From Tubulanus polymorphus (taxonomy: Eukaryota > Animalia > Nemertea): a stretch of 64,000 nt of DNA. Position numbers and translations under genes: made by a program. Under the pieces are notes generated by a model, which ran no database searches, was not told the DNA's origin, and was given only the letters and a program-made list of their open reading frames with translations. Position 1 is the first letter of the stretch, and the number at the start of each line of letters is the position of its first letter. This document shows, piece by piece, positions 13,766 to 60,572 of the stretch. Location of the stretch: positions 10,690,850 through 10,754,849 of the forward strand of contig NC_134029.1 of the NCBI RefSeq assembly GCF_964204645.1, read 5' to 3'.

Positions 13766-13923
13766 AGCTCTTATTGACGTGCTAAATAAATCGTAAGGGA
13801 GCTCGGTGCCTCGAGTCTTGCTGTATAAGTCATAGGTCCAAAAAAAAAATAAGAAAAAAAATGATAATAAGAAAATCGTATCAATGTTTGTCCCTTTATT
13901 CATATACATGTATTTTCTGATAC

Positions 13924-22825: not shown

Positions 22826-25716
22826 AAAATCTTCCTAAAGTCGTTTGTTACAAGCGCTGTGATTGATACGACCGGATTCTGGTCGGCTAGTAACGATGAA
22901 GCGGAATACCGGGATTCGGGGTAGCGTGCACTGGCAAGTGACTACAAAAATCTACTTCCGTTTCCGTTAAAATTCATAATGTCAAGTCTAAAGTCTCAAC
23001 TCTCGGAATTTCCTCGATCAAGAGGGAATACAGGTAGCTCTCTCTCTCTTTCCATAATCCTATACATTCAAGGAAAAAGTTGCATATAGGCGTCGCTTCT
23101 AGGGTTCGCTCACGTCACTAGCATCTGGGAGGTAGAGAAGCTAGAAGGGGAAAATTCTCTTGTTTTCCTCCATGAGATTTAACGTGCAAAAATATGTCAA
23201 GTCTTCCTCTGGTGAGTGAGAATACTTTAAGGAGTCCTAATTCTCAGTGATAAGTCATAATGGTAACACGGGTGACTGAATGTCCTCACAAATCACCCAT
23301 GAAAAAGCGTGTGCATGAATGAAAAACTGTGAGCAAAAGAATTAATAGAAGAATCATGAATGAGTCAAATGAAATAAAAATCCCCTAGCTTTCTCTCCGA
23401 CTGAGGAGGAAATACAGGACTGCGTCCAGCGCTACAAGTATTTCCGGCCTCCATAGCTGACCTGATCAGGCGTTTAGCTTCAAAAAGAATAATAGATACC
23501 AACTAAATAAAACGAGGAGCATTCACCAATATTTGGCCTCTCCCACTAGAGGGTGCCCTCAATGCTTCCCCTTTTTGAAGACTTACATGATGCCCAAAAC
23601 TCTCCAACCCACAAGATTCTTCAAGAATATTTTATGGTGTCACAGAATCCCAAAAATGCACAAGAAAATCCTTTCCTCAAATGATAGTAAATCCGACACC
23701 ACAAATATAGTTTAGGGAAAAAGGCAAAGATTTAGAATTTTATGTATATGATAATATTCTCTTGAATACTATTTATTATTTCTTGGAAATATTCGAACAA
23801 TGAACAATATATACACAACCTCGAGGTTATCTCTTATTTACAACATTTTAGGTAGATAAGATGGCCAACCGGCCACCAAAGGAGGAGATTAACAAAGGCA
23901 TATTGCCCTTAATACAAGTGCACGACTCGCACCAGAATTCAATAGTATCACGAATAAAGATTTCAGACATTCTAACATTACGACTCAATAATAGTTGCTT
24001 AAACCCTGCACTCCTTTTACGCTAAAGAAAATGTAACTCTGAGTGCTCTTAATAAAGATAAGAATTTTCGCTATATTTGATCATAGTTCCAGTTAAGCAT
24101 TTATTTAATTATTTTTCCTATTATGTTTATGTAAGAGATGGTCACTATTCCGAAAACTCAAAAGTTGAGGGAAAAACCAAGAGAGGAAATCGGAAAGAAG
24201 AATACTTTCGGGGAATAATTCAAAGGAGAAAGCCTCTTTGAACCCTGAAAGATTGTTTTCTGAAAACATCTTTGAGAATAAGGACCAAGAAATATGTAAA
24301 GAGAATCAGTGCTAAGTATGACTTACTAAGAAAATTAGATTAATCCCTCCCCCATAGTTCAAAATCTTAGTAATACACACCTTAAGAATGTGCACCGAGA
24401 CTAATTAATAAAGAACATTTTTGCCTTTTATAGAGCCCAGATTATGACATAACCCCATCTAATTGGCTAAAACAAAGCACCCCGAGCACACAATATAATT
24501 AAGAACCGTATAGTGGCGCCATCTCGGGCACAGAGCACAGCATAAAAACATCGATTAAGGCACATTAACTTGAAAAATACAAACCGGGAGTGACCCGAAC
24601 ACATAGAAAAGGTCTTTAGGTACAGTTTTTGAATTCAAATTAAATCATAGAATATTTCATTAAGATAGAAATAAAAATAGTTTCTAATCCACCAGACCGA
24701 AGTCCAAAGCATTAAACATTCTTGTCTCAGAATTACAAATACGTTATAAGGTTTTATTTTACATCATACAAACTTTTAATATGAATTTAATAGGAATTTA
24801 ATATGAATTTTAGACTGAACTGTGGAGGACTCTGCAGCTGGAAAATAAAAAGAACAGAACGAAGTGAAACGAATTTCCGCTACAACGACTCCAACGACTC
24901 GTGAGGTCAAGGGGTTCGGCGAACAGCTTTAGCGTAGTGGGTTCGAATCCCTTGACGGGTGAAGATGGACAGATACCTCCATCCCTTGTTATTAGCGACC
25001 TTGCAGAAGATACCTTTCCAATCCCCTTACTCCAGCGCCGGCGATAACCGCGGCTCCTTTGTCCCGAAATTGTTCCCGGTGGAAAATAGTACCGCCGCCG
25101 TATTTTTCTCGCTTTTTACACACGGAATAATTATCGAAAGCTATCATGTACGATACCGTTTGAAAGAGGATTATAAAGTCTTGACTCGGTAAAAGTATCT
25201 ACGAATTTCATCGTTTTTCAGCGACACGAGCTGTAGTTTATTAGTTGAGCCGATTTCGCCGGTTTGTTTACTTCCGGTACGAGCCCATGGCCCGCTCGAC
25301 TAGCGGGAGAGTTTAAGTTTCTGCACCGACGTCTTACTGCTATCATTATAAGTTATCACCCTAATTTCTAGTCACAAAGTTAACGTCCTTATATAATCCT
25401 CAATATTACAAATCCAGTAGATGATTTCGGCACCTTCATATCCTAAAAATACCGAGAATTCGACGAATGAATCGACGGCCCTGAACGCGGTCACGCATGA
25501 CGACCGCCTTTCGAGACCTTATTAATCTTTACGAATGGACGATCCTGCACACATTTCGGCAGCGGACTCGGAAGAATGCGAAAAAGCACATCTACCGCGA
25601 CGGCCATTGTTGAGCGACCAGCGAAGCGACGCGGAGTGATGCAACTATGGTGGCTTATAAGGGCCATAGCAGTAATAGGGGTAATGGGCTATAAACTATA
25701 ATATATTTTCATAACC

Positions 25717-25968
25717 GTGTGTAATTATTTTCATATTGATCATGTGTTGCCTATTTCTAAATTTGACATGAATGATGAATATGATAAAAAGTTAATTTGG
25801 AATTGGAAGAATTTAAGACCTTTAGAAAAGAAGGAAAATAAAATAAAATTTAATAAACTAGATTTACAGTTATATTTGGATCAATTAGATAAAGCAAAGA
25901 AATTCATTGAATTATGGAACAATGATCCAAATAATGAACAATATGTTGAATCTTTATTGAGTGGTTGA
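25717..25968 (+). pseudogene. HNH endonuclease C-terminal fragment
   Basis: HIDHVLP...WKNLRPL...EN..K pattern; starts directly at the partially deleted left TIR with no ATG. Confidence 0.65.
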
Positions 25969-26196
25969 AGAATAATAGAATTTAAATAAAATATAATAAA
26001 AATTACATACCTTCAACTATCTATTATTTCTATTTTGATTTTTAATATTTTCTTTTCAAAAAAGAATACTTTATATCACAAATAAAAAATACTAAAAAAA
26101 CAATACAAACTAATACTAAAATCCTTTAGCTTTAACTAGCTAGTATCATTTGAAGAATACTTATAATATTTTTCTTATTAAATTTCTCTAATATAA

Positions 26197-26805
26197 ATGT
26201 CAAAGAAATCTAATAAGAATAGTATTGATATTGAAAAAACATTAGATGATTTGGGTATAAGTGATAATAAGGATCCAGTTGTTTCTAATTCTATTCAAGT
26301 TAATTGTAATATAGATTATGAATACTATTTATATTGTAAGCATCATCTTGAATTATTAATTGCTGGCGGGAAATCTAAGGATTTCTTGGGAAAAATTTTA
26401 ACTTTTCAAGAACTAGACTCTATGAAACCCGATAAAGTAATAAAATATTTTAAGATTTATGAAGAGGCAAGATTGGCTAGAATAAATGATTCTATTTCAG
26501 ATAGTATTATAAAATGTTATTCAAAATTATGTAACCGGTTAATGACAATTGATGATGAAAATAAATTATATAGTGATTTGAAAAATTACTATTTAGTTAT
26601 GACTGAATTACAAAAATGGGTTGGTTATGCTTCATTTCAATTAGGATCGGTTATGACATTAATTTCTACTGGTGTCATAACATTTTCGAACATCAAGCCT
26701 ATGGAATATAAATCAGGTAAGAATGAAACAGATGTCGCTGTACTACAACCAAACGTCGAAACAGAAAATGAATCAGAACAAAAATTAACTAAAATAAATG
26801 AGTGA
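26197..26805 (+). CDS. Polinton hypothetical protein (202 aa)
   Basis: Intact ORF with TAAATG start; homolog at 49451-49858. Confidence 0.75.
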   Translation: MSKKSNKNSIDIEKTLDDLGISDNKDPVVSNSIQVNCNIDYEYYLYCKHHLELLIAGGKSKDFLGKILTFQELDSMKPDKVIKYFKIYEEARLARINDSISDSIIKCYSKLCNRLMTIDDENKLYSDLKNYYLVMTELQKWVGYASFQLGSVMTLISTGVITFSNIKPMEYKSGKNETDVAVLQPNVETENESEQKLTKINE

Positions 26806-27174
26806 TGGAGTTAAGAAAAAGGCTAGATCCGAGAAACAAATTAAATGGGCAAGAGAATTAGGTAAAAGATCTTCAGAATTAAAAAAAGCTAAGAAAAAGA
26901 AATTAACTGATATAAATGAATCACAGATATTGATTCAAATAATAATCCATCTAATTCTTCTAATGCTGGAAGTAATTATAAATTATATATTACAATTATA
27001 AATATATATTACAATTGGATTAGTAACAGTTATTATATTATCCGGTGTAATATATAAATCAAAATTCAAATCTGATGATAAATATGATTCCAATGACAAT
27101 AAACCTATCATACCAGAAATAAGTCAAATCATAAAACCATTGAAACTTAACCAAGATTATTATTAATGGATTAA
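26798..27174 (+). pseudogene. Small basic protein with a predicted TM segment, frameshifted
   Basis: K/R-rich N-terminus; hydrophobic ITIGLVTVIILSGVIY in another frame near 27010. Confidence 0.5.
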
Positions 27175-27180
27175 AATAAG

Positions 27181-28294
27181 ATGAAAAAAGAACAATATTT
27201 AAGAGATTTATATTATAACCCAGAGAGTGAAGTATCATATTCTAACGTTTCAGAATTATGGAATAAAATTAAATCTGATAATGAAAATGGTAATGGTGCC
27301 GTATGGCACCCACATGGTGATATAAAATATAGCGAATTAAAATCATGGTTACAAAATCAACCAACATATCAAATCCACAAGAAAATGGATAAAACTTATT
27401 TAACAAGAAACGTTATGGTTTCATATATCGATCAACAATGGCAAGCTGATTTAATTGACATGAAGAACTTAGAAGAATACAACAAAGGATATTTCTGGAT
27501 ACTGAATGTTATAGACATATTCAGTAGATACGCATGGTCAATTCCAATCAAAAATAAAGATGATATAGAAGTTACAAATGCTTTTAAATCTATATTTAAA
27601 GAAGCTATTCCAGATAAGATTTGATGAAGGTAAGGAGTTTTATAACAAACATTTTAAAAAACTATTATCTGATAACGATGTAGATTATTTTTCAACACAC
27701 TCAGATAAAAAAGCATCTATTATAGAAAGGTTTAATAATACATTGAAAACTAGAATGTGGAAATATTTTACTGCTAATGAAACATATAAATATATCGATG
27801 TATTAGATGATTTAGTGAAAGGTTATACTAATTCTAAACATAGTTCTATAAATATGAAACCTATACAAGCTAGAAAAGAAGATAATTCGGAAATAGTTTG
27901 GAATAATTTATATGGAGCGTTTGTTACACATGATTTCGGTGAACCTAAATTTAAAATAGGACAACACGTAAGAACATCTAAATATAGAAAAACATTTTAT
28001 AAAGGTTATACCCCTAATTTTACAGAAGAAATATTTAAGATTAAAAAGATAATATTAACTAAACCATTTGTTTATAAATTAGAAGATCTAAAAGATGAAG
28101 AAATATTAGGTTATTTCTATGAACAAGAATTATCACTTGTACCAAATCCAGATGAAATAGAATACAAAATAGAAAAAGTATTGAAAACAAAAACTCTTAA
28201 AGGAAAAAAGTATCCTTTAGTGAAATATAAAGGATATGATGATAAATTCAATGAATGGATTTTATCTAGTAAAATAAAAAGAATAAATGAATAA
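27181..28294 (+). pseudogene. int: Retroviral-type (rve) integrase with C-terminal chromodomain; one frameshift near 27620
   Basis: WQADLIDM, VIDIFSRYAW, FDEGKEF, IERFNNTLK; chromo YKIEKVL...VKYKGY...NEWI. Confidence 0.93.
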
Positions 28295-28903
28295 AGATTT
28301 ATTTATATTTGAACCGCATAATATGTTAGTTACTGGAGTAACCGATTGTGGTAAAACACATTTCATATTAGATTTGTTAGAAACTATTTATAAGAATCAT
28401 TTTGATAATATAATATTATTTTGTCCTACTTATGAAATGAATAAAACATATAATAGAGACATAGTTAAGATAAAAAAGTAAAGTTTATTATATTAAATCC
28501 TAAAACAGTAAAAGAAAATTTAGATAATTGTATAAAAATAGCAATTGATACTTATAAAGGATCAAATACATTATTCATTATAGATGATTGCGCAAATTTA
28601 CATGATTCAAAAGTGAGAGAAAGTGAGTTATGTTATCTAGCTTTCTCTGGGAGACATTTCGGGATAACAACATGGGTTTTAAATCAAAAATATAATTCAA
28701 TTGTTAAAGACTTTAGGGAGAATATAAGATTTCTAGTTTTATTTTATATCAAAGATAAAAAATCTATGCAACAATCATTGGAAGAAAATCAAATTATACC
28801 TATTGAATTACATGATGAATATATGAATAAATTAAAGAATAATAAAGGTTCAAAATTATTACTGAGATTACAATTTCCCTATGAATATAAATTTATAAAA
28901 TAA
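28287..28903 (+). pseudogene. A32/FtsK-like genome packaging ATPase; frameshift near 28475
   Basis: Walker A GVTDCGKT, Walker B LFIIDD, SGRH...LNQKY...REN. Confidence 0.9.
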
Positions 28904-29090
28904 CTATTTATAATTTGGAATATTATAGATACTAATTTATATTTCTATGTACTAGACGTACGAGTAAGAAAGTAAGATTCTTACCTTTTTACTTTCTTGG
29001 CAAGAATCTTGGATTCTTACGTACGTCTAGTCCATAGAAATATGAATTATTAAATGAAATATATAATAATGAATAAATTATATATTAAAA

Positions 29091-29212
29091 CTATGTTTAT
29101 AATTTATGTTTATGATTTATGTTTATAATTTATGTCTATAATTTATGTTTATAATTTATGTTTATAATTTATGTTTATAATTTATGTTTATAATTTATGT
29201 TTATAATTTATA
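29091..29212. repeat. 13-bp tandem repeat (TTTATGTTTATAA) x~9 between convergent genes
   Basis: Read directly from the sequence. Confidence 0.9.
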
Positions 29213-29311
29213 TTTCTTGGCAAGGATTCTTGGATTCTTACTTTCTTACTCATACGTCTAGTGCATAGATATATAAATATTTTTATAGATATATAAATAG
29301 TTTTATAATAA

Positions 29312-30451
29312 TTATTCTAATTTTGTTTCTAATACATTTATAAAATCATCTTTGTTTATATCAAATTCATCAGAAGTCTTTTGCATATTTATTAATTCTA
29401 TTTCATCCTTCATTCTACGTTCATCATCACTTAATCCAGCTTTTATTCTTAATTTTTCAAAGTAATCATTAGAATTATCACCATCAAAATCAAATTCAAA
29501 ATCATTTATTAAATTAAATAAATCTAGGTATCCATTATACGCTAATTTATATATTTGGTCAGGATTATCTTCTGCATAAGCTAATAATTTATCAAATAAC
29601 AACTTAAAGAATATATAATATTGTTTAGTTTCAGGATTAAAATATTTGATATATTTCTTTGGTTCATCTAACAATGGTAACATACCCACTTTTTTATAAA
29701 CATTAATTAGATGTAATTTTGATTTATAATGAGTAATTTTATCAACAGGTTCAATTTCTTTATCACAATAATCACATATTAATTCTTTTTCATTTTCTAT
29801 GTGCCCCTTAGATTTTTTATGTTTAGAAAAATTACTTTTAGAAATATCTAAATTACAAATGTTATAATGTTTTTTAGAATCATCAATTATTTCATTATCT
29901 GTTATATCATTATCATTAGTTTCGATTGGGTTAACATTATTTATTACATTATCTGTTATATTATCTATGGTATCATTAGTTTCAATTGGGTTAACATTAT
30001 CTTTTATATTATTACTAACTGATATATTATTATCATTATTATTCTTTTCTTTTTCTACATGTTTCTTTGATTTCTTATGTGATGGCCAATTTTTATATGA
30101 TATATATTTCTTACATACATCACAATATTTTGGATTATAATAATCTTTTTTTGATTCAATATCATATGTAGAGGGTATATTATAAGATGTAGATGCTGTT
30201 ACATCTTCTATTTTAGTTTCCATATTATCACTTTCTTCTATTTTATATTCAATATCATTCTTATCTTCTATTTTAGTTTCAATATTATTTTCTATTTTAG
30301 TTTCAATATTATCTTTTATTTTACTTATTCTATATTTGAATTGATTAAAGTAATCTCCAAAATACTTAATGTATTCATCATAAGGTAATATATAATATAT
30401 ATCTGATATCATTTCACTTGGGGTTTGTATTTCATATATTCCACCTTCCAT
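29312..30451 (-). CDS. Accessory protein with 2-3 matrin/C2H2-like zinc fingers and low-complexity repeats
   Basis: CDVC...H....KKH, (Y)NIC...H....KGH, CDYC...H....KLH; IETKIE and NVNPIETND repeats. Confidence 0.75.
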   Translation of the reverse strand: MEGGIYEIQTPSEMISDIYYILPYDEYIKYFGDYFNQFKYRISKIKDNIETKIENNIETKIEDKNDIEYKIEESDNMETKIEDVTASTSYNIPSTYDIESKKDYYNPKYCDVCKKYISYKNWPSHKKSKKHVEKEKNNNDNNISVSNNIKDNVNPIETNDTIDNITDNVINNVNPIETNDNDITDNEIIDDSKKHYNICNLDISKSNFSKHKKSKGHIENEKELICDYCDKEIEPVDKITHYKSKLHLINVYKKVGMLPLLDEPKKYIKYFNPETKQYYIFFKLLFDKLLAYAEDNPDQIYKLAYNGYLDLFNLINDFEFDFDGDNSNDYFEKLRIKAGLSDDERRMKDEIELINMQKTSDEFDINKDDFINVLETKLE

Positions 30452-30483
30452 TTATTATATAAATATTTATTAAAGTTAAAATT

Positions 30484-31731
30484 TTAATACATAACACTAT
30501 CTAATTGTGAATTTACAATATTTAATTGCGCGTCAGATATAATATAAATGTGCACTTTGAAATTTAGACTTCCTTTTTTCTTTGTCATGAAAAATTGTAT
30601 TCCATCTTTAGTGTTTTGTAATTTTTTTCCAGAACCATGTAATGAATTATCCTCTGTTGTTCTAAAATCTAACCATAATGCATATTTATTACCGGTATAA
30701 TAATCAATTTGATTAATTTTACAATTTTCAGATGATTTTACTTTTTCATTCATAAAATGTTTTCTAATTTCTGGCCATTGATCTATCATTCTCATTCCTT
30801 GACAAAATATTTTATTTGCTATTCCTTCGATAGTTATTTCTACTTCTGTTATTTCAGGATTATAATACTTATCAACCTGTATTGCACCATTAGAATATGT
30901 TGCAATGGTAAAAAATATTAATATACCTTTAATAGATCTTCTTGGGAAGTTAATATTCTCATTAATAATTTCATCATTTGCATTAATAGTTACAGTTTTA
31001 AATTTATCAATATAATCATATAATAATGAAAATCCTTGATTGTATTGAGTTTGAATTATACTTGAAATATTTTCATTAGTTACTGTGTCATATTCTAAAC
31101 ATATATTCGATAATTTATAACTCGTATCTTTATTAACGCTAGATATTACAATTTCATTAACAGGAGCAAATGTTATTTCGAATATAACGTCTTCTTGAAT
31201 TGCGTATTTATATAAAGGTGCATTGTTATTTATCAATTCAAAGTCTAATGGAATTTTATATTTGCTTCCATAAATCCTTTTTATCAAATTATCTACAGCA
31301 TTAGTTAATATTGCGCTATTAGCCCCTGATCTTAATTTATTTTGGTTTTCTGATTGGATGCCTTGAAATATCATATTATTTCTGTTTTCATTAGTTAACC
31401 ATAAATCTTTATAATGCATAAATAAATTATAATCATCTAATGAGAAAACTGTTTCTGGACCAATCTTTATTGTTAACTTTTTAATCAAATATCTCCCAAC
31501 ATTATCAACAACATAATTATTATCATGACCAATTACTTTTATATCGGCTGATAAATAAATACTATTTGGAACGTAAAAAGTATTTTGTGTTAATCGAGGA
31601 ATTCTAACATATAAAGTTTCATCGGGATTAATATTAGAAGGATTATGAGTAATTATATGATGTGATCTCTCTGCTTTAATAGCATTAGATATTCTATGAT
31701 TCTTAGAAGGATTGATATAACTCCCACTCAT
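30484..31731 (-). CDS. Major capsid protein (double jelly-roll, hexon-like)
   Basis: Intact 415-aa beta-rich ORF, the expected size and position in a Polinton, strongly conserved with copy 3; fold inferred. Confidence 0.75.
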   Translation of the reverse strand: MSGSYINPSKNHRISNAIKAERSHHIITHNPSNINPDETLYVRIPRLTQNTFYVPNSIYLSADIKVIGHDNNYVVDNVGRYLIKKLTIKIGPETVFSLDDYNLFMHYKDLWLTNENRNNMIFQGIQSENQNKLRSGANSAILTNAVDNLIKRIYGSKYKIPLDFELINNNAPLYKYAIQEDVIFEITFAPVNEIVISSVNKDTSYKLSNICLEYDTVTNENISSIIQTQYNQGFSLLYDYIDKFKTVTINANDEIINENINFPRRSIKGILIFFTIATYSNGAIQVDKYYNPEITEVEITIEGIANKIFCQGMRMIDQWPEIRKHFMNEKVKSSENCKINQIDYYTGNKYALWLDFRTTEDNSLHGSGKKLQNTKDGIQFFMTKKKGSLNFKVHIYIISDAQLNIVNSQLDSVMY

Positions 31732-31771
31732 TTATTTATCAAAAAAATTAATTATTTATTTTTTATCATGT

Positions 31772-33445
31772 TTACTTGATATTTTTTGATATCATGTTTA
31801 CTAACCCAAAAATAATAGCACTTACAACTGTAATTAAAAATAAAATAATATGTTCAGCAGCAAAGTTAATAATGTTTCCTGCAGATTTCAATATAAAACC
31901 AACAATTGATGCAATAACTCCTGGCAATGCTGCAGCAGATTTTTTAGATAGTTCCCATAAATATTTTGCTAATTTCTTTAAACCATCTTTAACTTTATCT
32001 TGTATAGAATTATTATCTGGAGGTTTATCCGGTTTATTGGGAGTAGGAGTAGGAGTAGATTTCAAAGCATTTGATATTGCTAAACCTATTGTTGTGAATA
32101 CCATAGTTACAGATGTTAGAATGGAAAGAATTGTTATTCCTTCTAATTTAAATAATAATCTTATTCTATCTTTTAGTGATATTTTAGAATTTGGTTTAAT
32201 CAACAAATCTTTAAAAATAACTTTTAATTTTTTAATATGATTAAGATCATATGATTTTAATAATATATCTCTTTCTTTTTCCTGTAATTCTTTGTTATAT
32301 TTTAAATCATCTATTTCTTTTACTAAAGCTAACTTTCTGCTTTCATAATCAGGTTCATAAATGACATTAAGATCTCTATTTTATTCTAATTGTTCTAATT
32401 TTTCATTTGCAATAGCTAATTCTTTTTCTAACATGGTTATTTTAGAAAATCTCATATTAATATTAGCATTTACATCAGCTGATTCTTGAATACCTTTAAT
32501 TTCTCTACGTGTTTGTTCAGGAAATGCTTCTAATTCTTCATCAGTTAATTTAAGAAATCCTTTTTCTAGTAAAGATAGTGTTCGATTTATTCCAGCACTA
32601 TTCATCTCTTCTTCTGAATCTCTTAATCTATCAATTTGTTTTTCTAATACTAATTGTAGTTGACTTGAATCATTATCAATTTGTTGAATATCTCTTCTCG
32701 ATGTTTCGGGTGTTGAAGATCTTAATTTATCTAATCGATTTACAAAATCTTCATCAGTAGGATTTGGATTTGGATTTTTAAATGGTGAATATTTGTTTAT
32801 ATCAATATTATGAATTGGTTCTTCTTCATTTATTCTATCGAGTGCATTCCATATAATTCTGAGAAATTCTCTACCACCTTTTGAACCTTCAATTGTAGAT
32901 AATGCTCGCATTTCAGGTTCCAAAATATTTTCTTGACCCATTCTAGATAATTGAATTGATACAATATTCCTATTTAAATCAAGATTATAATACCATGAAT
33001 CATTTTTAAATTCTAAATTATTCATGAAAAATGGGTCATCTTTTAAAATTTGTTCTACAACACCTTCTGTATCAATTTCATGTATTACAACTTTTGGTAA
33101 TAATTCGTTAACAATTGTATCTGTTACTCTAGATTTCATTTTATATAATTCCATAGGTTTATCAGGATATTTTTCTTGTTGTTCTACTAATAGTTTCATA
33201 AATTCTTTTCTTTCTCTTCTAGTTGAAATTCTACCAATTTCAGGAGCTTTTAAATATTTATTTAATTTTTCACGTAATTCGGAATCATCATCATCATCAT
33301 CATCATCATAATCATCATCTTCATCTAAATTAGTATTATATTCTATTTCATTATCATCATTAAAACTTGTTTCACTAAAATCAGGTTGTTGTTCATCACT
33401 TATACCAGGTTCATCTAAAGGATCCAATGGAATTTCTTCATCCAT
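31772..33445 (-). pseudogene. Acidic/coiled-coil protein with C-terminal hydrophobic and amphipathic helices (putative membrane-active virion protein); frame broken near 32200-32380
   Basis: ORFs 32381-33445 and 31772-32206 are colinear with one region of copy 3 (53360-54785); C-terminal GITILSILT...AAALPGVIASIVGFIL conserved. Confidence 0.65.
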
Positions 33446-33461
33446 TTATATAATAAAAAAA

Positions 33462-34787
33462 TTAAAATTTAAAATATAATATTCCTCCGATTACAATTCC
33501 TATACAAGTTAAAGCTAATTTAGCATTTTCATGGGATTTATTATCATCATTTAGTTTAATTATATCATGTTGAATATTATCAGTTTTTATATTTTCTGAT
33601 GTATTGTAATCTTTTATTTTAGAATCATTATTTAATTTAATATTCTTAGTTTTAGTTTCTGTTGATTGAATATGTTTTTTATTTTTTTCACCTTCCATTA
33701 ATTTTGGAGCAGTAATAATCTTTTTATTTATATCATTCAATCCAAATGAATTATTTATTGTTGCAGTTTTAATTAGATTATTATAACCAATTATGTTTTC
33801 CTTCTTTAATACTAAATCATTTGAAATAATAAATAGATTAGGGCCTATACAATAATTTAATCTAATATGTGATTTATCTAAATAATTTTGATATCTTACA
33901 ATGTTTTCCGGAATCGATCTATTTTTATCATTATGAATTGAATCTTCAAATAATACTTTGAATTGTTTCTGCGCATCGAATGAAGTGTTATCATTTCCAA
34001 TTATTGGGGATCTTGTTTCAACTTGCGCACCTAGAATACATATCAAATAAGTTCTAATAGATTGATTTATTCTTTGTATTCCAGCTTTAGTAAAACCTTC
34101 ACTATTTTCTAAAATGAAATTAACCCAACCATTATTGTTTTGTTGTTGTATATTATTATAATATTTTGGTAATTCATTCCAATTTAGTGTTCTTATATCT
34201 GAATTTGTCATTATTTTTCCAAATTCTTTAGTATATAATATTCCTAATCCACCCATTGTTCCAATTTTTACCCTAAAATCTTTATTTGAATTAATATTAA
34301 ATTCATTACATATTTTATAAAACTTAGAAAAATTAATATTATTATTCAATTCTTTAAAATATTTTGAACCTGGTAAAGGACATTCTAATTCATCTAATAT
34401 TAATTTTATTTGAAAATATGTATGAAATCTAAAAAGTGATAACATCAGTGGCAAACTTGGTTTGTTTAAATGATCATTCCAACTAATTCCGCATCCTGTT
34501 GTTGCGCAATAAACAGCAAAATTTAATTGGTTCTGCCAATACTTCATATTAGATTTTAATAACCATTGTTTTGCCTCATTTAAATTTTTGAAATAAATTG
34601 TATACACATGAAATATATTTTCCATCTTTACATGAAAATTATTACTTTCAGTAACATAAATATATAAATCAATTAATGAATTTAAAACTTCATTTCTATA
34701 TGTAATATCTTTTTTAAAATCTATTCTAGGAATATTATATTTAATTGATTTATTATATTGGAAAGTATTTGGAAAACTACCTGCCAT
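33462..34787 (-). CDS. Conserved Polinton protein of unknown function with C-terminal TM anchor (441 aa)
   Basis: Intact ORF; WQNQLNFAVYCATTGCG motif shared with copy 3; ends LALTCIGIVIGGILYFKF. Confidence 0.8.
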   Translation of the reverse strand: MAGSFPNTFQYNKSIKYNIPRIDFKKDITYRNEVLNSLIDLYIYVTESNNFHVKMENIFHVYTIYFKNLNEAKQWLLKSNMKYWQNQLNFAVYCATTGCGISWNDHLNKPSLPLMLSLFRFHTYFQIKLILDELECPLPGSKYFKELNNNINFSKFYKICNEFNINSNKDFRVKIGTMGGLGILYTKEFGKIMTNSDIRTLNWNELPKYYNNIQQQNNNGWVNFILENSEGFTKAGIQRINQSIRTYLICILGAQVETRSPIIGNDNTSFDAQKQFKVLFEDSIHNDKNRSIPENIVRYQNYLDKSHIRLNYCIGPNLFIISNDLVLKKENIIGYNNLIKTATINNSFGLNDINKKIITAPKLMEGEKNKKHIQSTETKTKNIKLNNDSKIKDYNTSENIKTDNIQHDIIKLNDDNKSHENAKLALTCIGIVIGGILYFKF

Positions 34788-34803
34788 TTATATAATTAAA
34801 AAA

Positions 34804-35238
34804 TTAATAATTTATTAATTCTTTTAATAATTTATCTTGTTCTTCAACTGTTATATGACCAGTTAAACTTATTATATAATCTAGTGTATTCTTTAATTTA
34901 TTAATTTCGTTTATATTAGTTTTAATTTTTTCTTTATTACTTTTTATATTTAATTTTGAACTTATACCGGTTAAAACACTTGAACTTAATCCTAATACAC
35001 CAATTGATATAGCTAAAGGTGTTAATGGACTGAATATTGCTAGAAATGTTATTACAGAATTAATTGTAACCGAACCACTTATAATCAAATAATATATAAT
35101 TTTAGATTTTAAATATTTTTTCTCTTTAACTTTTAAGTCACTTTCAAATTCTAATATTTGTTTTTCTAAATATGTTTTTAATTTAGTTTTATTTATATCA
35201 TGAGGAATAATATCAATATTATCAACTTTATCTTCCAT
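34804..35238 (-). CDS. Two-TM protein flanked by coiled coils (144 aa)
   Basis: Two adjacent hydrophobic helices; homolog at 56168-56604. Confidence 0.78.
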   Translation of the reverse strand: MEDKVDNIDIIPHDINKTKLKTYLEKQILEFESDLKVKEKKYLKSKIIYYLIISGSVTINSVITFLAIFSPLTPLAISIGVLGLSSSVLTGISSKLNIKSNKEKIKTNINEINKLKNTLDYIISLTGHITVEEQDKLLKELINY

Positions 35239-35258
35239 TCATTTAGCAAAAAAAATTA

Positions 35259-35681
35259 CTAATTAGTAAACTTATAAGCAACAAATATAACAATAACTGT
35301 TCCGCCTAAAATCCATATTATTTCATATTTCTGTTGTTCATTACTTGGGGTATAATAATCTGATAATTTAGGTTTGTATAGATGTAATTTTTCTTTATTG
35401 GTTACCGCGTTATATAAACTCATTGCATCATCAACTGATTGAAAATCTCTATGTGAAATCTTCTGATCATATAATTCCTTGTTAATATAATCCATATAGT
35501 TTTGCCTCTTTTCTCTATATTCTTCTGCTGCTTTATTGTATTTTTCTAATGCTAAGTTATGTCTTTTTTGTTCTGATAATGAACCATTTTCATCAAGATG
35601 CTTAAATAAATAACCACCACCAGTAAATGCTAAAGCGTTAACAATTGCCGATCCTATAATAGTTCTAACTGCAGAAGCCAT
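35259..35681 (-). CDS. Polinton small membrane protein (140 aa)
   Basis: Near-identical to 57-479. Confidence 0.8.
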   Translation of the reverse strand: MASAVRTIIGSAIVNALAFTGGGYLFKHLDENGSLSEQKRHNLALEKYNKAAEEYREKRQNYMDYINKELYDQKISHRDFQSVDDAMSLYNAVTNKEKLHLYKPKLSDYYTPSNEQQKYEIIWILGGTVIVIFVAYKFTN

Positions 35682-35705
35682 TTATTTAGTAAAATAATTA
35701 TGCAT

Positions 35706-35926
35706 TTATATGGGAGAAATATATTTTTGTTTTTCCAAATAATCAATAGTTAAATTAGATAAAGTAACTGCTAACGTTAATTTTAAAATATCATTTATAT
35801 CAAATCTATCAACATTAACACTTCCCATTTTGAATACTTTTTTAATACCATTGAATAACCAACAGTTCCAACTGATAGTAATGCGCCATTATATAATCCA
35901 GTTATTATCCACTTATTATCACTCAT
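35706..35926 (-). pseudogene. 73-aa hydrophobic protein with a 1-bp homopolymer deletion
   Basis: 221 bp versus 222 bp in copies 1 and 3. Confidence 0.75.
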
Positions 35927-36283
35927 TTATTTATCAAAAAAATTACTATCTTCAAAATATTTAGTTATCTTATTTATGATTAATTCAACATTTATTTCAT
36001 TACTAGTTTCATTTGTATATATTTCAATTATTATTTTTTTAATATCATCGATGATAAAATCTTCATCTAATTCATAAAATCTTAAAAATTCTCTAATTAA
36101 ATTAGTAATCTTTTCTACATTTAACGTTTCTTTATCTATTGCTGTTTCATACTCAAATGTTGTTTCATTAGAAAATGCAATATTTTTAATATGTGTAATT
36201 ACATCATTAATGTTAAATTTCATTTCTTTCTCATGTTTAAAATCAAACCCAAAACATATACTCGGTCCAACAGTTATATTCAT
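35927..36283 (-). CDS. Polinton hypothetical protein (118 aa)
   Basis: Intact ORF; its TAA overlaps the next gene's TAAATG; homologs in copies 1 and 3. Confidence 0.72.
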   Translation of the reverse strand: MNITVGPSICFGFDFKHEKEMKFNINDVITHIKNIAFSNETTFEYETAIDKETLNVEKITNLIREFLRFYELDEDFIIDDIKKIIIEIYTNETSNEINVELIINKITKYFEDSNFFDK

Positions 36284-36299
36284 TTATATAATGAAAAAA

Positions 36300-37055
36300 T
36301 TACTCTCTACATCTTATTACTAATTCATAAATTACAGGAAAGTTATTCAAATCAATTAAATGTCCATTATGATTTCTTATTTCTAATTTAAAATTATTAA
36401 ATTTAGGAATGCAAGGTTTAAAATCACATTCAGTTCAATTATAATTTATTTGAGTTCCAAATTGTTTAACATTTTTCAGCGGTAAAATATTTAGTATACT
36501 AGAATTACAAATTGTTTCTTTAGTTGCTTCGAATGTTTTTGTAGGATCGATTAAATTGCAATAAATATAAAAGTGTGTAAAAGGTATTATATTTGAATTA
36601 CCATCTATGTTTCCTGTAACAGTATCTGGTGCAATTCCTAGCAATTTAGCTAATGGTTTTTTTACCATAAATGCATGTTGACTTTCATCATATACCTTTA
36701 TTTCAATTTTATTTGTGCTATCACTTTTTATAAATCTAATTAAAAATTTATCATCTCTTCTAATTTCCAACCGTGCTCTTCGATTAATTTCTTGAGCTAA
36801 TGTTTCTAAATTATATAATCCTGGTTTTAAAATTATATGAAACCATTTATCTATATTTCCAATATGAATTAAAAAAGTATTATCTTCAATAGTTTTATCC
36901 GATATATTATAAAAAGAATTACATAAACTTATATTAACTAATTTTAAATCAACACAATTCTTGAATTCTCTATCTAATTGTACTAGTAAATTATGAGATT
37001 TATAATTTGTAAGTTTTCTAGAATCAACAAATATTCTGTATTCTTTTAATTCCAC
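36300..37055 (-). pseudogene. Minor capsid (penton-like) gene; start region altered, frameshift near 36435
   Basis: Homologous to 1103-1858. Confidence 0.7.
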
Positions 37056-37072
37056 GATTTATTTTACATATT

Positions 37073-37426
37073 TTATTCGAAATCTATTTCATGGTGCCCT
37101 TTTTCATTCTTACCTTTGTATACGAAATAGAAATCTCCAGAACATAATTCTTCTAGATCTTCACTTGATAATCTATGAAATCTATCTGGTAAATATGTTC
37201 TGAATTTATATGTATTTCCTTTTAATCCTTCATATTCTAAGTGTATAACTAATTTATCTCCATAGTTATTAGTAACTGTATCAATATTTGTAATTAGATA
37301 TTTCTTATGGATTGTTAATTCTGTTAACTTTTTGAATTTATAATCTACAGATTTTACATTTGTGATATCTTTTATTCTATCTAGAAATAATTTGTTGTTC
37401 TCACTGTGTGTTTGTTTACTCTCCAT
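37073..37426 (-). CDS. 117-aa protein downstream of polB (possibly OB-fold/ssDNA-binding; unverified)
   Basis: Intact ORF with TAAATG start; same sequence is fused to PolB in copy 1. Confidence 0.65.
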   Translation of the reverse strand: MESKQTHSENNKLFLDRIKDITNVKSVDYKFKKLTELTIHKKYLITNIDTVTNNYGDKLVIHLEYEGLKGNTYKFRTYLPDRFHRLSSEDLEELCSGDFYFVYKGKNEKGHHEIDFE

Positions 37427-37454
37427 TTATAATACATATTTTATTAAAATTTGA

Positions 37455-40400
37455 TTAACACGTTAGAATTCTTTTCATTATCTCGTTCTCTTTTGTTTCT
37501 TCTCTTTTAAATTTTAAGTATCCATCTAAATTACAACCATAAGCAACTGTATGAATTCCATCATCTAAAATATATCTTTTATCATCAAATGGGTTTAGAC
37601 TTATCTTTTCAATTTCTTCAATAAACATTTCATGATCTTCAGATCTTAAACATCTCATTTTATGTTTTCTAACTTCTTCATTGAATATACAATTGATGTA
37701 ATCTTTGAAATGAATATTCTTTTCTACTACACTTTTGGTTATTCCTTTTAACTTTTTAGCTTCATGAGTTTTAGTTTTATATGAATACATTTTAGATCTA
37801 ATACCTATGAACTCTATCATTTCTTCACCACCTAATTCATCTTTGAATTTACCGGGAACTTTTTTATTATCATTGCTAAACAATTCATGATCTTTAGGAT
37901 AGTTACTAAAATCAAAATGATGTTTTAATGTTTTTAAATCATCTGTTATGTTATCAGTTTTTATCTTTAATATGTAAGAATCTGTATTTTTTATGATAAA
38001 TGGAAATCCACAATTAAATGTACCATCTTCAGTTGTTAAATCATAAACATATTCTGTAGGATTGGATATTTCAAATAAATCTCTAGCTTCAGTTAGTTCA
38101 TTTTCTACATGCGTTAATTGAAATACATTTGGTTTATCCTTTCTAATATTAACTAACATATTAAATCCTAATGAATTGCATAATATATTTAATCCTGATA
38201 CAGCAACTTTTCCTTTTTGTGTCAAAGATATAGTTTTCTGTTTTGTATAGTTTTTTGAACCATCTGCAGCATAAAACCCAATGAAGAACCATTTTCTTAA
38301 ATCATATTTTGCATTTATTACATAATCTGGAACTATCTTTTCTTTTGTTGAAGTATTACTTTTCACTATTGCATGAATATAGAATTCATCATTATATTTA
38401 ATTGCAAAATCTTTAGTAGTATTCACATGTATTCTATAACATGGTGATGATTTCATATAATCCCCGATTCTAAATGTTTTATGTGAATAAACTTGTTCAC
38501 AGTATTTTTTAATTCTTTCTAATAATTTCAAATCTTGATTGCATAAATACCAACAATATTTAGTTCCACTAACATATTTATACACACCTGCTGAACCATC
38601 GCCCATAGAAAAATCCTTTGATAAAATATTCTTTTTCTTCCAATGTTTCGGGTTCTATATTATAAATATTATCAATTATTTTATCAAATGACATATGATT
38701 CATTCTTGGGTAAAATCTTCTATGTAATAATTTATCTCCAATTTTTATATCAGTTGGTTTTATTTCATCACCATTTTGTTTAATTAAACTATGATCTTCA
38801 GTAACATCAACAAATCCTAATTTAGTTCTAACTCTATAGATTTTCTTATTCGTTTTATGTCTAATTATATTCTTTAATTTCACCCATCCATTTTTTGTCG
38901 AAACATCCATTAATCCATTTATTTGTATTAATTCTTTTTCACCATACGAAATATAAAGTTCATTTTGTTTTGGAATTATTTCTGAAATTCTTCTAATTAA
39001 CATTTGATTATTATATTTTAAAAATATTGGGGTGTCAGCTGTAACAGAATCAAAATATAATATTTCTATATGTTTTTCTCCAAAAAGTGGTTGTAATACA
39101 TTATAATAGAATTCATACATTAGTAATTTTGATAATTCTAAAACTGAAGCGCCAACAGATTGGTTTATTAAATTTCATTGATGTTCTTCTCATTTTAACT
39201 GCAGCTAAATTTTCATCAAATATTCTGTTACCTATAAATTTAGGATATGTTTGTAAATGTCTAATTCTTTTACCATTACTAACTAACTCAATATCATTTC
39301 TATTTCTAATATTTTCACAAGTCTTACCATAGAATGCATTATTCATTAACTTGAAGAAATCTTTTTCGAAATCAGTTTTAGCTTCAGTTCTCTGTTTGGT
39401 GTTAAAATCTATATATTTTTCTAACCACTTAGATTGACTAAATGAAATATATCTATGTACTTTTTTTAGAATCATTCCTTGATTCAAATAAAACGTCAAC
39501 ATTCTATAATGTACCACATAATCATATTTATCTTCTTGAGTTACCATTAACTTTTCTGTATGAATATGATTTTCAGGTTTAATTCTTTTTTGATAACTTG
39601 ATAATTCTTCATGAGTTACGGTTTTATGTTCGGGGCAGTATGCTAGATTTCTAGATTTAAATTTAATATGTTCAGGATATTCCAAGTCTACAACAAAGAA
39701 GTAACCAGTATCTGAATCATCTGCAATATCTAGAATTCTTTTCTTCCAATCAAATTTGTCATTATTTTCATTCTGTAAAACTTCACTTAATTCAAATACT
39801 CCATAAGGTTGTGGTTCCATCATTGCCCAACCATACAAATTATTTGCATCTATATATAATAACTTATATCCGGGGTTATCATTTACATTGAAATATCTAT
39901 CACCTAATACACCTGAAACTCCTCCTCTTATAGATTTTTCAAATAATAATAATTGATCTATATTTGTTAACAAATCCATTTTTATATCTGTAAATTTTAA
40001 ACCACAATCCCAAGTTAAACCTGGACTAGAATAACAATGACAAGGATCAATATTAAAATATTTTAGGATTACATCTCTAAACCTTTCGAATATATTGGTT
40101 AATAATAATACATCTGATTTTAAATATATATCTACTAATTGCTTATGATTTATTATATTGAAATGATTCCAAATATTCAATGTTCTATTATATACTTCAT
40201 CTTTAACATATTCATTTTTTAATTCATCATAGAATTGTTCTTTCAATAATTCAGTTATGTTAAAATCATTATGTGATTTATAAAATGAATATGGAATTGC
40301 TCCTTTATATCTCATTAATTGAAAATCATCATTATTTGGATAGTGTTGTTTTAATATTTTTAATTCATCATCAACTAATGATTTTGATAAGTTATCTAAT

Positions 40401-42306
40401 GAACTATTTAAAAATCTATATGAATCTATAAATCTTAGACACCCAAATTGGAATGATATATAATTCTCAGATGTTTTAGCTAACATTCTAAATTTATAAG
40501 TTGGTATTTTATCTTTTGATCTATTTGAATTTAATCTTTCTGTTTCATTATTAATTTCTTCTATTTTATGGCATAACTGTTTGATGAATAAATGTGCATC
40601 ATATCCTGATAGATTATGAAATATAACTGGTACAAAATTAATTTTCTTAGCTTGTAAGTTACAATTCTCATGTGCAGCGCCTCTAAACTTTCCGTTCAAA
40701 TGATCATGGTCTCTTACTTTTTTATCTTTATAATTAAATATCTTTTCACAATAATAACATTTATCTGCAAACGCAAATGCTTCTTTATCTTCTTCTGTCA
40801 TTATAATTTCTATATTTTTATTTAACTTTTCATTAAATTTTATTTCATATTCAATTAATGTCACAAAAATGATTGATAACATTTTCATTTCTGTAATGAT
40901 AATATTCACTTTTAATTAGTTCTGGATAATCAGATTTAATATATAACCCGAAAGCTGCAGCTGATTGATGAATCTTTTTAATAGTATTTGTTTTTGGTGG
41001 TTCATCTGAAAAATCATTTTCATTAGAATTTAATTTCTTTCTTTTATAATATATTTCTTTTCTATCTTGATCAGTTAATTCTTTATTTAATGATTCAAAA
41101 TCTCCATATCTTACAAATGGTACTTTATTTTTGTAATCATATTTTTTGAATTCTAATATTTTATCTTTTTCATTTGGTAAAACTAATTTACAATAATCAT
41201 GATTTTCACATAATTGTTTATGATTTAATAATGTACTTTCATTACTGAATCTATGTAAACATTTTCTACAAAGATATATTTTATGGTGATCATTTTCTGA
41301 TTTAAAAAATAAATCTATTTGTGATTTGTGATCTATGTGTAATATCTTCTGTTGGATGTAAACAACTTATTATAGCCCATAGAAAACATTTATCATCTTC
41401 ATTTTGTACATTTATTACAGTATTAGTTTTAAATGGTAGTTTAATATAACTCGATGCTTCAATATCTGGTTCTTTATAATATGATACATTATTTTCATCA
41501 ATTGGTTTTGATTTAGTTAACTTATTATATTTTGTGTTATAAACATGTAAAGTCATAAATATTATTTCATCAAATATTAAACCAGATCCTTCAAAATATT
41601 TCACTTCAATTTTAGTTTTTACTTCATTATAACATTTATCTAATTTTTCATCTATATGTTGTTTAGATATAATATGTTGTGAATGGGAATTTATATTATA
41701 TATTGGTTTATCTTCAGATTTTATAAACTTTACTTTAACTGATATACTAATTTTAGGATATTCAACATCAGTAATTATTTTTATAATATTTTTCATATTT
41801 TCTAAATGTTTTTTATTTTCTTCTAATGTTTTTCCTTTATGAAATTTAAACTCGATAGCTGCTGGACCAATATCACTTTTAAATGCTTCGGTTATCTCTA
41901 TATCTTTTTTGTTATCCAATGAATTAATATATTTTCTTACATCTTCCATGTATGGTCTTTTATTGTTTAATTTATTTTTTATGCTTTTAATTGTCTTCTG
42001 TTTCTTATCATTATCTTTATCAAAATAATCTTCACCTAAAATATTATTATTCTTATTTCTAATATAACTTTTATATTTTAAATGTTCTTTATAATATCTT
42101 TTATCACTGAATGATTGATTACATGTATCACATTTGTATGTTTCTTTTTCATTCTTTAATTCATCTAATTTAGTTTCTAATATATCATCTTCATATTCTA
42201 GTTTCAATTTATTCTCTAAATGTGTTTTAGTTTTATTGTGTCTTGCTTTTTGGGATTTATCTATATTGATATTACATGTTGGGCAGTAGTACTTATTTGC
42301 TTCCAT
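37455..42306 (-). pseudogene. polB: Protein-primed DNA polymerase B with intein; several frameshifts and an internal deletion near 41320
   Basis: YIDANNLYG, KLMNNAFYGK, YFD-[intein]-TDS, RSKMYSY, KLKGI, DDKR. Confidence 0.95.
37986..39048 (-). mobile_element. Intein with LAGLIDADG homing endonuclease in PolB motif C (354 codons plus a 1-bp insertion near 38608)
   Basis: Block A SVTADTPI; block B VTEDHSL; FIKGFFMGDGS and FFIGFYAADGS; block F VYDLTT; terminal KN followed by +1 Thr; absent from copy 1. Confidence 0.95.
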
Positions 42307-42512
42307 TTTAATATCAAATTTTTTGTTAAAATTGATTTTAGAAGTTCAATGATTTATATCATGTATTATTTCAATCACACTTTACTAACACTTTTAATGT
42401 TTAAAAATCTAACTCATACAAATATGAATATTGAAATAATGTTGTAAATATATACTTTTATATTGAATAATCTGTCAATTTAAATGTTATTCATTTACAT
42501 GAATATTTTAAG

Positions 42513-42921
42513 AGTGATAGGGGTAATGGGCTTTCATATCAAAGGTTGAATGGTCGAGTTCATTAAAAACAAATATTAAAAGTAATTTAAAACTATAATA
42601 TATTTTCATAACCGTGTGTATTTCAGTTGAATAATAGAATAATTATTATTATTAAAATATATTTGATTATATGAATTTGTGTATTGTAAATAAATCAATT
42701 GGTCGCGGAGCGGAGCGGTAGCGAAGTGGAGCGACCAACTGATTTAATACAATATGCTTTTAAAATTTGAATTATTAATATCTTAGAATAAATATTTAGT
42801 TATAATATAAAATACACACGGTTATGAAAATATATTATAGTTTTAAATTACATTTAATATTTGTTTTTAATGAGCTCGACCTTTCGACCTTTGGTATGAA
42901 AGCCCATTACCCCATATTACT
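42513..42921. repeat. 409-bp terminal hairpin of Polinton copy 2
   Basis: ~110-bp arms 42513-42622 / 42810-42921; nested stem AAATCAATTGGTCGC...GCGACCAACTGATTT near 42692-42745. Confidence 0.93.
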
Positions 42922-43146
42922 CATAGCGTAAAATTCCTGGGGCCGGTTTCATAGACATGGAATAAATTTATTCCCTGATATCAAATCACTAATCCCAGGG
43001 ATCAAATTTAGTACTAGGGAAATTTCTGTTTCATAGACGTGGATGTTTTTATTCCCTAGCAATAAGTAGCTTATTCCTAGCGGCAAATTTGATACCTAGC
43101 CACAGCTAGGTATCAAATTATATTCCTTAGCATCAAAATTAACAAA

Positions 43147-48609: not shown

Positions 48610-49450
48610 AGATGAAAATATGACGAAGACTTTGGGTGTGAATTATGACTTGTGATTACGACCGTTAGACCCTGAATGGGATGAAGAGAAGAAGCTACTC
48701 AAAGTCGGAGGAAGATTGAGAAATTCACTTCTTCCTGAAGAAACAAAGAATCCAATCATTCTGCCGCCTGGTGAAAAATTGGTTGAAAAACTGATCATGT
48801 GGTACCATGTTATATATGGTCATACTGGTACTGTTCAGACATTGGCGGACTTAAGATGTAGATATTGGTTAATTAGAGGAAGACAAGAGGCCATGAGAGT
48901 AATCAATGATTGTAAATGCCGTGAACCTGAAAAGATAGAACAAAAGATGGGACAATTACCAGTTGAAAGTGTCATTGGAGTCCCTGTATTTTACCATGTC
49001 GGAGTAGATTTCACGGGACCATTGTATGTGAAGTCATCCAAAGTGTCTGTATCTAAGGTGTACATTGTTTTGTATACTTGCATGGCAGTTCGTGCTATAC
49101 ACTTAGAGTTGGTGCCAGATCAGACAACAGAAGAATTCCTCAGGAGTTTTGGGCGCATGATGATCCGCAGAGGAAGATGTATTGTGATGTTTTCCGACAA
49201 TGCTAAGACCTTCGAGAAGGCATCAACTTTACTAGCGAATCTATTCTTACCAGGAAATTAGAAGAAATTAGATGTATATCTACACGGCAAAGGTATAACT
49301 TGGAAGTTCATAGAACCACGAGCCCCATGGCAAGGGTGTTTTTATGAGGGACTCATCGGTGTAGTGAAGAGACCATTAAAAAAGATTCTCGGTAAAGCTA
49401 AGCTGTCATATACTGAGTTGGAAACTGTGTTATGTGAAGTTGAAGCACAG
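48610..49450 (+). pseudogene. BEL/Pao LTR retrotransposon pol remnant (integrase); gag/PR/RT deleted, 3' truncated
   Basis: VGGRL...PIILP, HHCC zinc motif, VGVDFTGP, RAIHLELV, SDNA, APWQG.FYE. Confidence 0.9.
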
Positions 49451-49858
49451 TTATTCAGTCATAACTAAATAATCATTTTTTAAATCGGAATATAATCTAT
49501 TTTCATCTTGAATTGGCAGCATATAATTACATAATTTACTATAACCTTTTACTACATTTTCTGATATCGCATCATTAATTCTAGCTATTCTTGCAGTTTC
49601 ATAAATCTTAAATAATTTAATAATTTCATCTGATTTCATTGTATCTAATTCATTATAAGTTAAATTTTTACCAATAAAACTTTTACATTTCCCAGATGCT
49701 ATTAATATTTCTAATTGATGTTTGCAATAAAGATAATATTCATAATTATTGTTGTAGCAATATCATTTAAAGCACCATTATTATCTGACGCTGATTTTGT
49801 GTCTGTTATCAATTGGAACATCACTATTTTTAGATTTTATTTTCTTTTCGCCTCCCAT
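49451..49858 (-). pseudogene. Homolog of the 202-aa protein, 3' truncated
   Basis: KIYETARIARINDAIS...LYSDLKNDYLVMTE. Confidence 0.8.
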
Positions 49859-60172: not shown

Positions 60173-60567
60173 AATGGAACAGAAAATACCATGTGAAATT
60201 TGTGGAACTTCAAAGAAAAAGTAATATGGTTCGACATATGAAAAAACATGATAAGAATTATAAACCCCCTAAAATAAACTGCCCAAATTGTAAAAAATTA
60301 TTCTCAAGAAATTATGTTAAAAAACATTCAGAGAAGTGTAAAATTAAAAGTAATTCTGTTGAAACTGAACTTGAAAATATTTGGAAAAGACTTTTCTTAT
60401 TCTATGATAAGAATAATGTAAAAGATCATTTCTGTGAGCATTGTCGAATAAAATATAGCCCCGAAAATATAGAAGATTGGGAGAATCATCAATTTCGTAA
60501 AGCACAGATAGATAAAATTTCTAATAAATTTGAAACAGAATTCAATGGAAGAAAAATAAAATATTAG
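60173..60567 (+). pseudogene. C2H2 zinc-finger protein with an early frameshift
   Basis: TAAATG start MEQKIPCEICG...HMKKH; CPNC...H...C; CEHC...H. Confidence 0.65.
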
Positions 60568-60572
60568 AAAAA

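Follow-up and report, generated by a model that had tools for sequence, protein, structure and literature searches.

The closest described systems are the inteins at the pol-c site of PolB, an allele that both archaea and giant viruses are known to carry (PMC549080, excerpts). The same excerpts report inteins in an insect-infecting iridovirus; hence animal cells are no barrier to them. The available parts of the census PMC5784728 show that, in eukaryotic viruses, inteins occur most often in DNA polymerases (67 cases, from Phycodnaviridae, Iridoviridae, Mimiviridae and unclassified viruses), and give a count of zero for Metazoa. The words 'polinton' and 'maverick' do not occur in its four supplements. 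Inteins are also described as absent from metazoan genomes in the accessible sections of PMC8529194. The polymerases of Polintons carry HNH or VSR domains (partial text of 10.1101/2023.08.22.554363), and a single sentence in the extract of PMC11071308 suggests that such endonuclease inserts stem from intein invasions, with no splicing domain shown.

Here we describe an insert in motif C of the protein-primed polymerase (pPolB) of a Polinton, which is the second of three copies in a 64-kb stretch of DNA (the whole stretch analysed, referred to as the window). Our reading, to which we give a probability of about three in four on the basis of the sequence comparisons below, is that this is a LAGLIDADG intein whose intact family members are predicted to splice and likely home, and whose host is likely an animal. 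The preliminary description of this DNA had already stated that the pol-c site is used by archaeal and giant-virus PolB inteins and that no protein-splicing inteins are known from animal host genes. Both statements agree with the excerpted sources (PMC549080 for the first, PMC5784728 and PMC8529194 for the second).

An intein in the active site of a Polinton polymerase

Alignment of copy 2 with the empty copy 1 delimits an insert of 1,063 bp (37986-39048, minus strand; Table 1). It reads as 354 amino acids, SVTADTP...GFPFIIKN followed by TDS, with an X placed at the single break. The junctions are YFD/S and N/TDS, and copy 1 has the intact YFDTDS. The position in motif C claimed in the preliminary description is thus exact, and excision of the insert would indeed restore YFDTDS. 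The residues named there were all located in the 354-residue reading: Ser1, T83-E-D-H86 in block B, two LAGLIDADG helices, VYDLTT in block F (334-339, including D336), N354 and the +1 Thr. Helix 2 is GFYAADGS (residues 257-264). The frame break crosses helix 1, and the acidic residues of the endonuclease, D150 and D262, are both present. The penultimate residue is Lys, where His is usual (not obligatory).

The HMM check that had been proposed for the 354 residues gave matches over cut-off for both the Hint part (TIGR01445 intein_Nterm, 31.3 bits, cut-off 24.5) and the endonuclease (LAGLIDADG_3, PF14528, 29 bits, cut-off 22.5). Pfam Intein_splicing (PF14890) had an E value of 1.3e-6 and, with 28.8 bits, stayed under its cut-off of 35.8, which it exceeds in the relative P0003. 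In the structure model (mean pLDDT 69) the N-terminal region forms a beta-rich Hint fold. The best hits of this model in the PDB fold search were endonuclease-bearing inteins (7qsu with an E value of 1.9e-14); 7qsu, 7qss, 7qst, PI-PkoII, PI-PfuI and PI-SceI ranked first, and I-DmoI was matched as well. By HMM and fold, the insert is a LAGLIDADG intein at the pol-c site of the Polinton pPolB. Its GC content is 25%, versus 24% in the exteins.

A spliceosomal or self-splicing RNA intron was considered and ruled out, because purifying selection acts on the insert, which is an open protein frame.

Table 1. Positions of the intein, its parts and the surrounding Polinton features in the window
Feature	Position	Strand	Remarks
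Intein of Polinton copy 2	37986..39048	-	motif C of pPolB, between Asp and Thr
N-terminal splicing (Hint) region, residues 1-113	38710..39048	-	TIGR01445 above cut-off; Hint fold in model
Block B TEDH of copy 2 intein	about 38791-38802	-	
Linker and LAGLIDADG homing endonuclease	38118..38709	-	PF14528; fold matches; dN/dS 0.29 vs copy 3
LAGLIDADG helix 1, contains frameshift	about 38592-38616	-	
LAGLIDADG helix 2	38256-38279	-	
C-terminal splicing region, terminal Lys-Asn	37986..38117	-	ending common to uninterrupted relatives
Block F VYDLTT	38031-38048	-	
+1 Thr of C-extein	37983-37985	-	
N-extein of copy 2 pPolB	39049..42345	-	PF03175, PF02945; split over several frames
C-extein of copy 2 pPolB (TDS..., KFKDE, KMYSY)	37455..37985	-	96% DNA identity to copy 1 beside site
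Copy 1 pPolB, empty site YFD-TDS between 2392 and 2391	1876..4476	-	3' part deleted
Second intein, copy 3, same codon	61942-63005	-	88% DNA identity to copy 2 intein
Whole Polinton copy 2	25671..42921	.	17,251 bp; ends AG...CT; terminal inverted repeats short and degenerate
6-bp target-site duplication CATAGC of copy 2	25665-25670 and 42922-42927		
Retroviral-type integrase and chromodomain, two frames	27175..28294	+	PF00665, PF00385, both below cut-off
A32-type packaging ATPase (part)	28469..28903	+	PF04665 above cut-off
Likely double jelly-roll major capsid protein	30484..31731	-	Atlas and Pfam

The host element and its surroundings

Polintons are 15-20 kb long and have terminal inverted repeats and a 6-bp target-site duplication. 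Copy 2, with its pPolB, integrase, A32 ATPase, capsid look-alike, element ends and the CATAGC duplication on both sides of its 17,251 bp, is an integrated Polinton, as had been proposed. PF03175 was above cut-off in the pPolB, the N-extein of which contains zinc fingers, an endonuclease VII domain, an exonuclease and motifs A and B. The integrase scores (rve E 1e-4, chromo E 8e-5) were both under cut-off. The Atlas look-alikes of the putative capsid protein are viral capsid clusters (score 0.98, low recognition), and Capsid_N matched it with an E value of 0.039. For a maturation protease, there was no Pfam match in the scanned frames and no hit in a simple motif scan.

Three copies of one Polinton family, all of them decayed, lie in the window, each with the polymerase on the minus strand. 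The right ends of elements 1 and 2 (5975-6560 and 42509-42925) are repeated terminal units with near-perfect hairpins, the one in element 1 having 77-bp arms (6026-6189). At the left end of element 2 there is a single shortened terminal unit only. By its motif, a stop-free stretch at this end (25702-25970, plus strand; DHVLPIS...WKNLRPL...EN) looks like a piece of a free-standing HNH endonuclease such as large DNA viruses have.

No host genes were found in the 64 kb, only transposons: a FLYWCH-MULE, a LINE, a Harbinger element and an LTR integrase flank the Polintons. The inverted ends of the FLYWCH-MULE (13913-16617) carry arrays of a 16-bp unit. The integrase (48656-49468, plus strand), which we take to be BEL/Pao-like by its motifs, had generic integrase matches only in Pfam. 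It is interrupted at about 49450, where the third, rearranged Polinton starts, the left part of which is inverted relative to element 2. Next to the polymerase of copy 3, two plus-strand frames (60534-61488) look by their motifs like a late transcription factor of the VLTF3 type, a reading that neither Pfam nor a comparison of loci supported.

Judging from the flanking transposons alone, the host of the Polinton is likely an animal. Alternatively, the same element could sit in the transposon-rich genome of a protist, an alga or an oomycete. Such a host would be in line with a window that has no host gene and with one Atlas cluster, for a MULE without FLYWCH, that is commonest in Oomycota; moreover, endonuclease VII-bearing pPolBs are reported also from oomycetes in the part of 10.1101/2023.08.22.554363 at hand. 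However, the nearest Atlas clusters of the FLYWCH-MULE are eukaryotic with Arthropoda as the commonest group, the class of the BEL/Pao-like integrase is called metazoan (PMC3118150, excerpt), and the flanks have a GC content of 34-45% with TA microsatellites. We therefore regard a non-animal host as quite unlikely.

Filled and empty copies in the window

Filled copies (2 and 3) and an empty copy (1) occur together in one 64-kb window. The third copy and its intein had been missed in the preliminary description. The copy 3 intein is more decayed than that of copy 2: it has eight alignment gaps in the C part, the Asp of helix 2 is changed, and it ends with Val-Asn before TDA. Between copies 2 and 3, dN/dS is 0.29 for the whole intein and 0.25-0.29 for the endonuclease part, and the endonuclease part is under purifying selection. 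Of the synonymous sites, the two copies differ at 25% in the intein, whereas the figures for the exteins are 52% and 63% (p 3e-6, intein against N-extein).

At 180 of 221 two-way sites, the exteins of copy 2 match those of copy 1, which is empty. This resemblance is mosaic, with a dS of 0.47 upstream and 0.11 downstream. A co-conversion tract among the window copies was non-significant upstream (4:6 vs 30:145, p 0.09), and there was none downstream. Since the copies are mosaic and have no significant tract, plain recombination could explain the local pattern. Copies 2 and 3 are decayed, and judged by their reading frames no active polymerase would be expected from either.

Relatives of the intein

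The search for relatives covered 2,834 longer candidates and gave 333 matches. Top-ranked among the 333 were four inteins without a break (P0002, P0003, P0004 and P0005), each in motif C of a protein-primed polymerase, with identities of 62% (P0002), then 45%, 46% (P0004) and 45%. Giant-virus-type PolB inteins came next in rank, with at most 43% identity to the copy 2 intein. Among the shorter matches were further pPolB-borne fragments, and L172 is another pPolB-borne case. The junction pattern was matched by 20 viral and 54 metagenome stretches and by no stretch from a prokaryote genome. The 183 fetched loci comprised 164 of giant-virus type, 18 unclassified and one of pPolB type (L172), and two of the 137 new matches of the profile search were pPolB-borne fragments. 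With the copy 1 polymerase, no relative was found among viral contigs. The polymerase search had a length window that excludes full-length filled proteins; its 120 matches were 91 empty, one filled and 28 without readable motif C.

Some matches lie outside this family. P0006 and P0136 represent a type II topoisomerase with several inteins, two of which are related to the copy 2 intein. P0099 is a DNA polymerase delta with the label of a green alga, Chloropicon primus, and its pol-c intein is of the giant-virus type. P0186 is a Polinton-type polymerase labelled Sulfurimonas sp., probably by bin contamination.

The relatives also bear on the question whether the Hint domain merely cleaves or is a dead relic everywhere, so that a spliced polymerase is never formed. 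The penultimate His is absent and copies 2 and 3 are both broken, as expected of a relic. Yet the three nucleophiles as well as blocks B and F are preserved in uninterrupted full-length relatives, whose penultimate residue is Lys, His or Ser, with Lys being common. In addition, lineages with the insert have multiplied, as seen in a cluster of 55 members on contigs of up to 825 kb, and an insert that stays unspliced would part the catalytic aspartates. A universally dead or merely cleaving domain is thus very improbable, and the prediction that intact members splice is preferred.

Origin of the intein

Intein trees were built separately from those of the exteins, as the preliminary description had suggested. 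In the first (46 rows: 10 pPolB-borne and 36 of 79 others), the pPolB-borne rows formed one group with a support of 100/100. The second (46 rows: 5 pPolB-borne, 27 others and 14 MAG) was rooted on nine archaeal-MAG pol-c inteins, the outgroup branches being long. Here, the pPolB clade (100/99) lies inside a clade of 22 rows (100/99) together with 17 giant-virus-type inteins, two of which match IMG/VR GVMAG loci at >99%. A giant-virus sister group of the pPolB inteins had a support of 92/80 in the first tree and was without resolution in the second. In itself, the pPolB group is a clade of its own with a long stem.

As the pPolB clade is nested among giant-virus-type inteins, a PolB of a giant virus is the likely donor. 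The earlier suggestion that the Polinton was colonised from a large DNA virus therefore stands with regard to the source. With regard to time it has to be refined to an old acquisition, since divergences run parallel across Polinton lineages. A recent capture from a giant virus was ruled out: the stem is too long, and the best giant-virus identity is 43%.

Homing versus descent

For the N-extein tree, 30 of 101 rows were used; all filled rows were kept and the empty ones were thinned at 70%. On this tree the intein label requires seven changes, six of which are forced, and shuffled labels require 7.1 on average, so that the observed number is no lower. Every filled lineage has empty close kin. 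The main groups of the intein and extein trees agree, and identities run in parallel: between the window and P0002 they are 62% for the intein and 57-59% for the extein, and between the window and P0125 45% and 40-42%. Tree agreement and parallel identities fit one old entry, followed by gain and loss among close kin.

An intein that entered once, still splices but does not home would also produce agreeing trees and similar divergences. The filled and empty sites would then reflect recombination between Polinton subfamilies and precise loss, and the mosaic copies with their non-significant co-conversion tract would fit this. But many precise losses would be needed, and the endonuclease part would not be expected to be under purifying selection. 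Furthermore, P0125 (filled) and P0128 (empty) are 99.65% and 100% identical in their exteins, and P0004 has an intein 46% identical to that of copy 2 in a polymerase that BLAST does not match to copy 1 (best E 0.18), meaning that the intein would have jumped to an unalignable polymerase. An old passenger without homing is hence unlikely.

Homing is favoured by the P0125/P0128 pair, by P0004 and by the synonymous contrast between copies 2 and 3, and the intein likely spreads between Polinton copies. From these comparisons we infer that the intein was transferred once, long ago, from a giant-virus PolB into a Polinton lineage. It would then have descended with homing between close relatives, been lost or decayed more than once, and jumped one or more times into the other polymerase group.

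Copy number and the frame break in raw reads

Four read runs from one study contain the stretch. A fifth run, X5, is from another sample and study with the same species label; about 12% of its reads were used, with likeness cut-offs of 88 and 92 (the stricter for flanks). The X5 depth was 360-600 over the exteins, 211-255 over the N half of the intein, 43-165 over its C half and, at the stricter likeness, 3-9 over low-copy flanks. In other copies, the C half of the intein has diverged further or lost parts of its sequence. From these depth ratios we estimate, very roughly, that 25-85 of 50-200 Polinton copies in the species are filled. The empty allele was seen directly in X5 reads that skip the insert (97 with exactly 1,063 bases, 73 and 41 near-exact).

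In X1 and X2, contigs skip 252 bases (84 codons) at 38057-38310, i. e. in the second half of the endonuclease. Other copies may here be decaying into a shorter form of the intein.

The 1-bp insertion near 38608 had been put down to either decay or a sequencing error, with a proposal to inspect raw reads over the break. At this position, about 180 of about 225 X5 reads are from copies that are in frame there; thus the break belongs to copy 2 or its assembly. As the X1 contigs of the flanks have few gaps relative to the window whereas the copy 2 polymerase has several breaks, decay is favoured over assembly error.

The reads also speak against a chimeric assembly and against contamination with a contig from a giant virus. 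The wider family consists mostly of giant-virus PolB inteins (see the fetched loci above), which might raise this suspicion. It is excluded for practical purposes by two diverged copies with the intein at the identical codon and by X5 reads that cover the intein and both junction bins. The target-site duplication, the GC content close to that of the exteins and the occurrence of pPolB-borne relatives in unrelated data sets point in the same direction, and we consider an artefact of this kind extremely improbable.

Predicted splicing and homing

The splicing chemistry of class 1 inteins is textbook knowledge. Following it, the pPolB would be made as a precursor containing the intein. Ser1, aided by the Thr and His of block B, would form an ester, which would be attacked by the +1 Thr; the terminal Asn would cyclise and YFD and TDS would be rejoined. 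Class 1 splicing is suggested by the conserved Ser1, T83xxH86, D336, N354 and +1 Thr, and a set of this type is a mark of an active intein according to the excerpts of PMC549080. Because the insert parts the two aspartates of motif C, the polymerase would need splicing and would be active only afterwards. The endonuclease would cut sister Polintons in their uninterrupted motif C DNA, and repair templated by a filled copy would write the intein into the empty one. Intact family members may in this way both splice out and home into empty Polinton copies.

In a wider interpretation, to which we lean with some reserve, this is the first protein-splicing intein in an animal genome: a giant-virus intein that was brought into germlines by Polintons, homes among tens of copies as a natural drive and is a fossil record of Polintons and giant viruses replicating in the same cells.

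Significance and comparison with known systems

If the host is an animal, the intein is a counter-example to intein-free metazoan genomes, although what carries it is a virus-like endogenous element and no gene of the host. It would be the first Hint-bearing intein found in a Polinton, where intein invasion had merely been guessed (PMC11071308, extract). A step from the PolB of a giant virus to the pPolB of a Polinton spans a distance between genes at which homing does not normally operate, and it touches on the question whether Polintons, like virophages, live in the same cells as large DNA viruses. With filled and empty copies present in one genome, the homing of an intein within a multi-copy nuclear element can be put to a direct test. 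A polymerase that depends on splicing, if true, would be a switch on Polinton replication.

In the literature searched, with incomplete coverage of subscription papers, RepBase and InBase, no Polinton intein was found. The available text of the nematode paper 10.1101/2023.08.22.554363 does not contain 'intein', 'LAGLIDADG' or 'Hint', nor do the accessible portions of PMC8502044 and PMC11131425 contain 'intein'; none is reported in the portions at hand of PMC12220804, PMC3671162, PMC5718144 and 10.1101/299784. A Hint-bearing intein in a Polinton is therefore likely new, whereas the pol-c allele itself is already known.

Three known systems are similar to the intein described here. The Hedgehog/Hint domains of animals share the Hint fold (PMC8529194, accessible sections). 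However, they are found in animal host genes, without an endonuclease and outside polymerases, whereas the fold matches of copy 2 are endonuclease inteins. The Polinton pPolBs with HNH or VSR domains likewise have endonuclease domains inserted in the polymerase, and the copy 2 pPolB itself also has an endonuclease VII domain. In contrast to those inserts, the one in copy 2 is a separate insertion into the active site and comprises a complete Hint domain. The closest likeness is to the Mimivirus PolB intein, which according to the excerpts of PMC549080 occupies the same pol-c site (YGD/TDS, compared with YFD/TDS in the Polinton) and has 351 amino acids compared with 354. Both inteins start with Ser, end with Asn, are followed by a +1 Thr and have the N3 Thr and His as well as LAGLIDADG motifs. 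Yet the Mimivirus host protein is an RNA-primed giant-virus PolB, whereas here it is the protein-primed polymerase of an integrating transposon-virus; and unlike the Mimivirus intein, the Polinton intein is present in many copies in a cellular genome and belongs to a clade of its own with a long stem.
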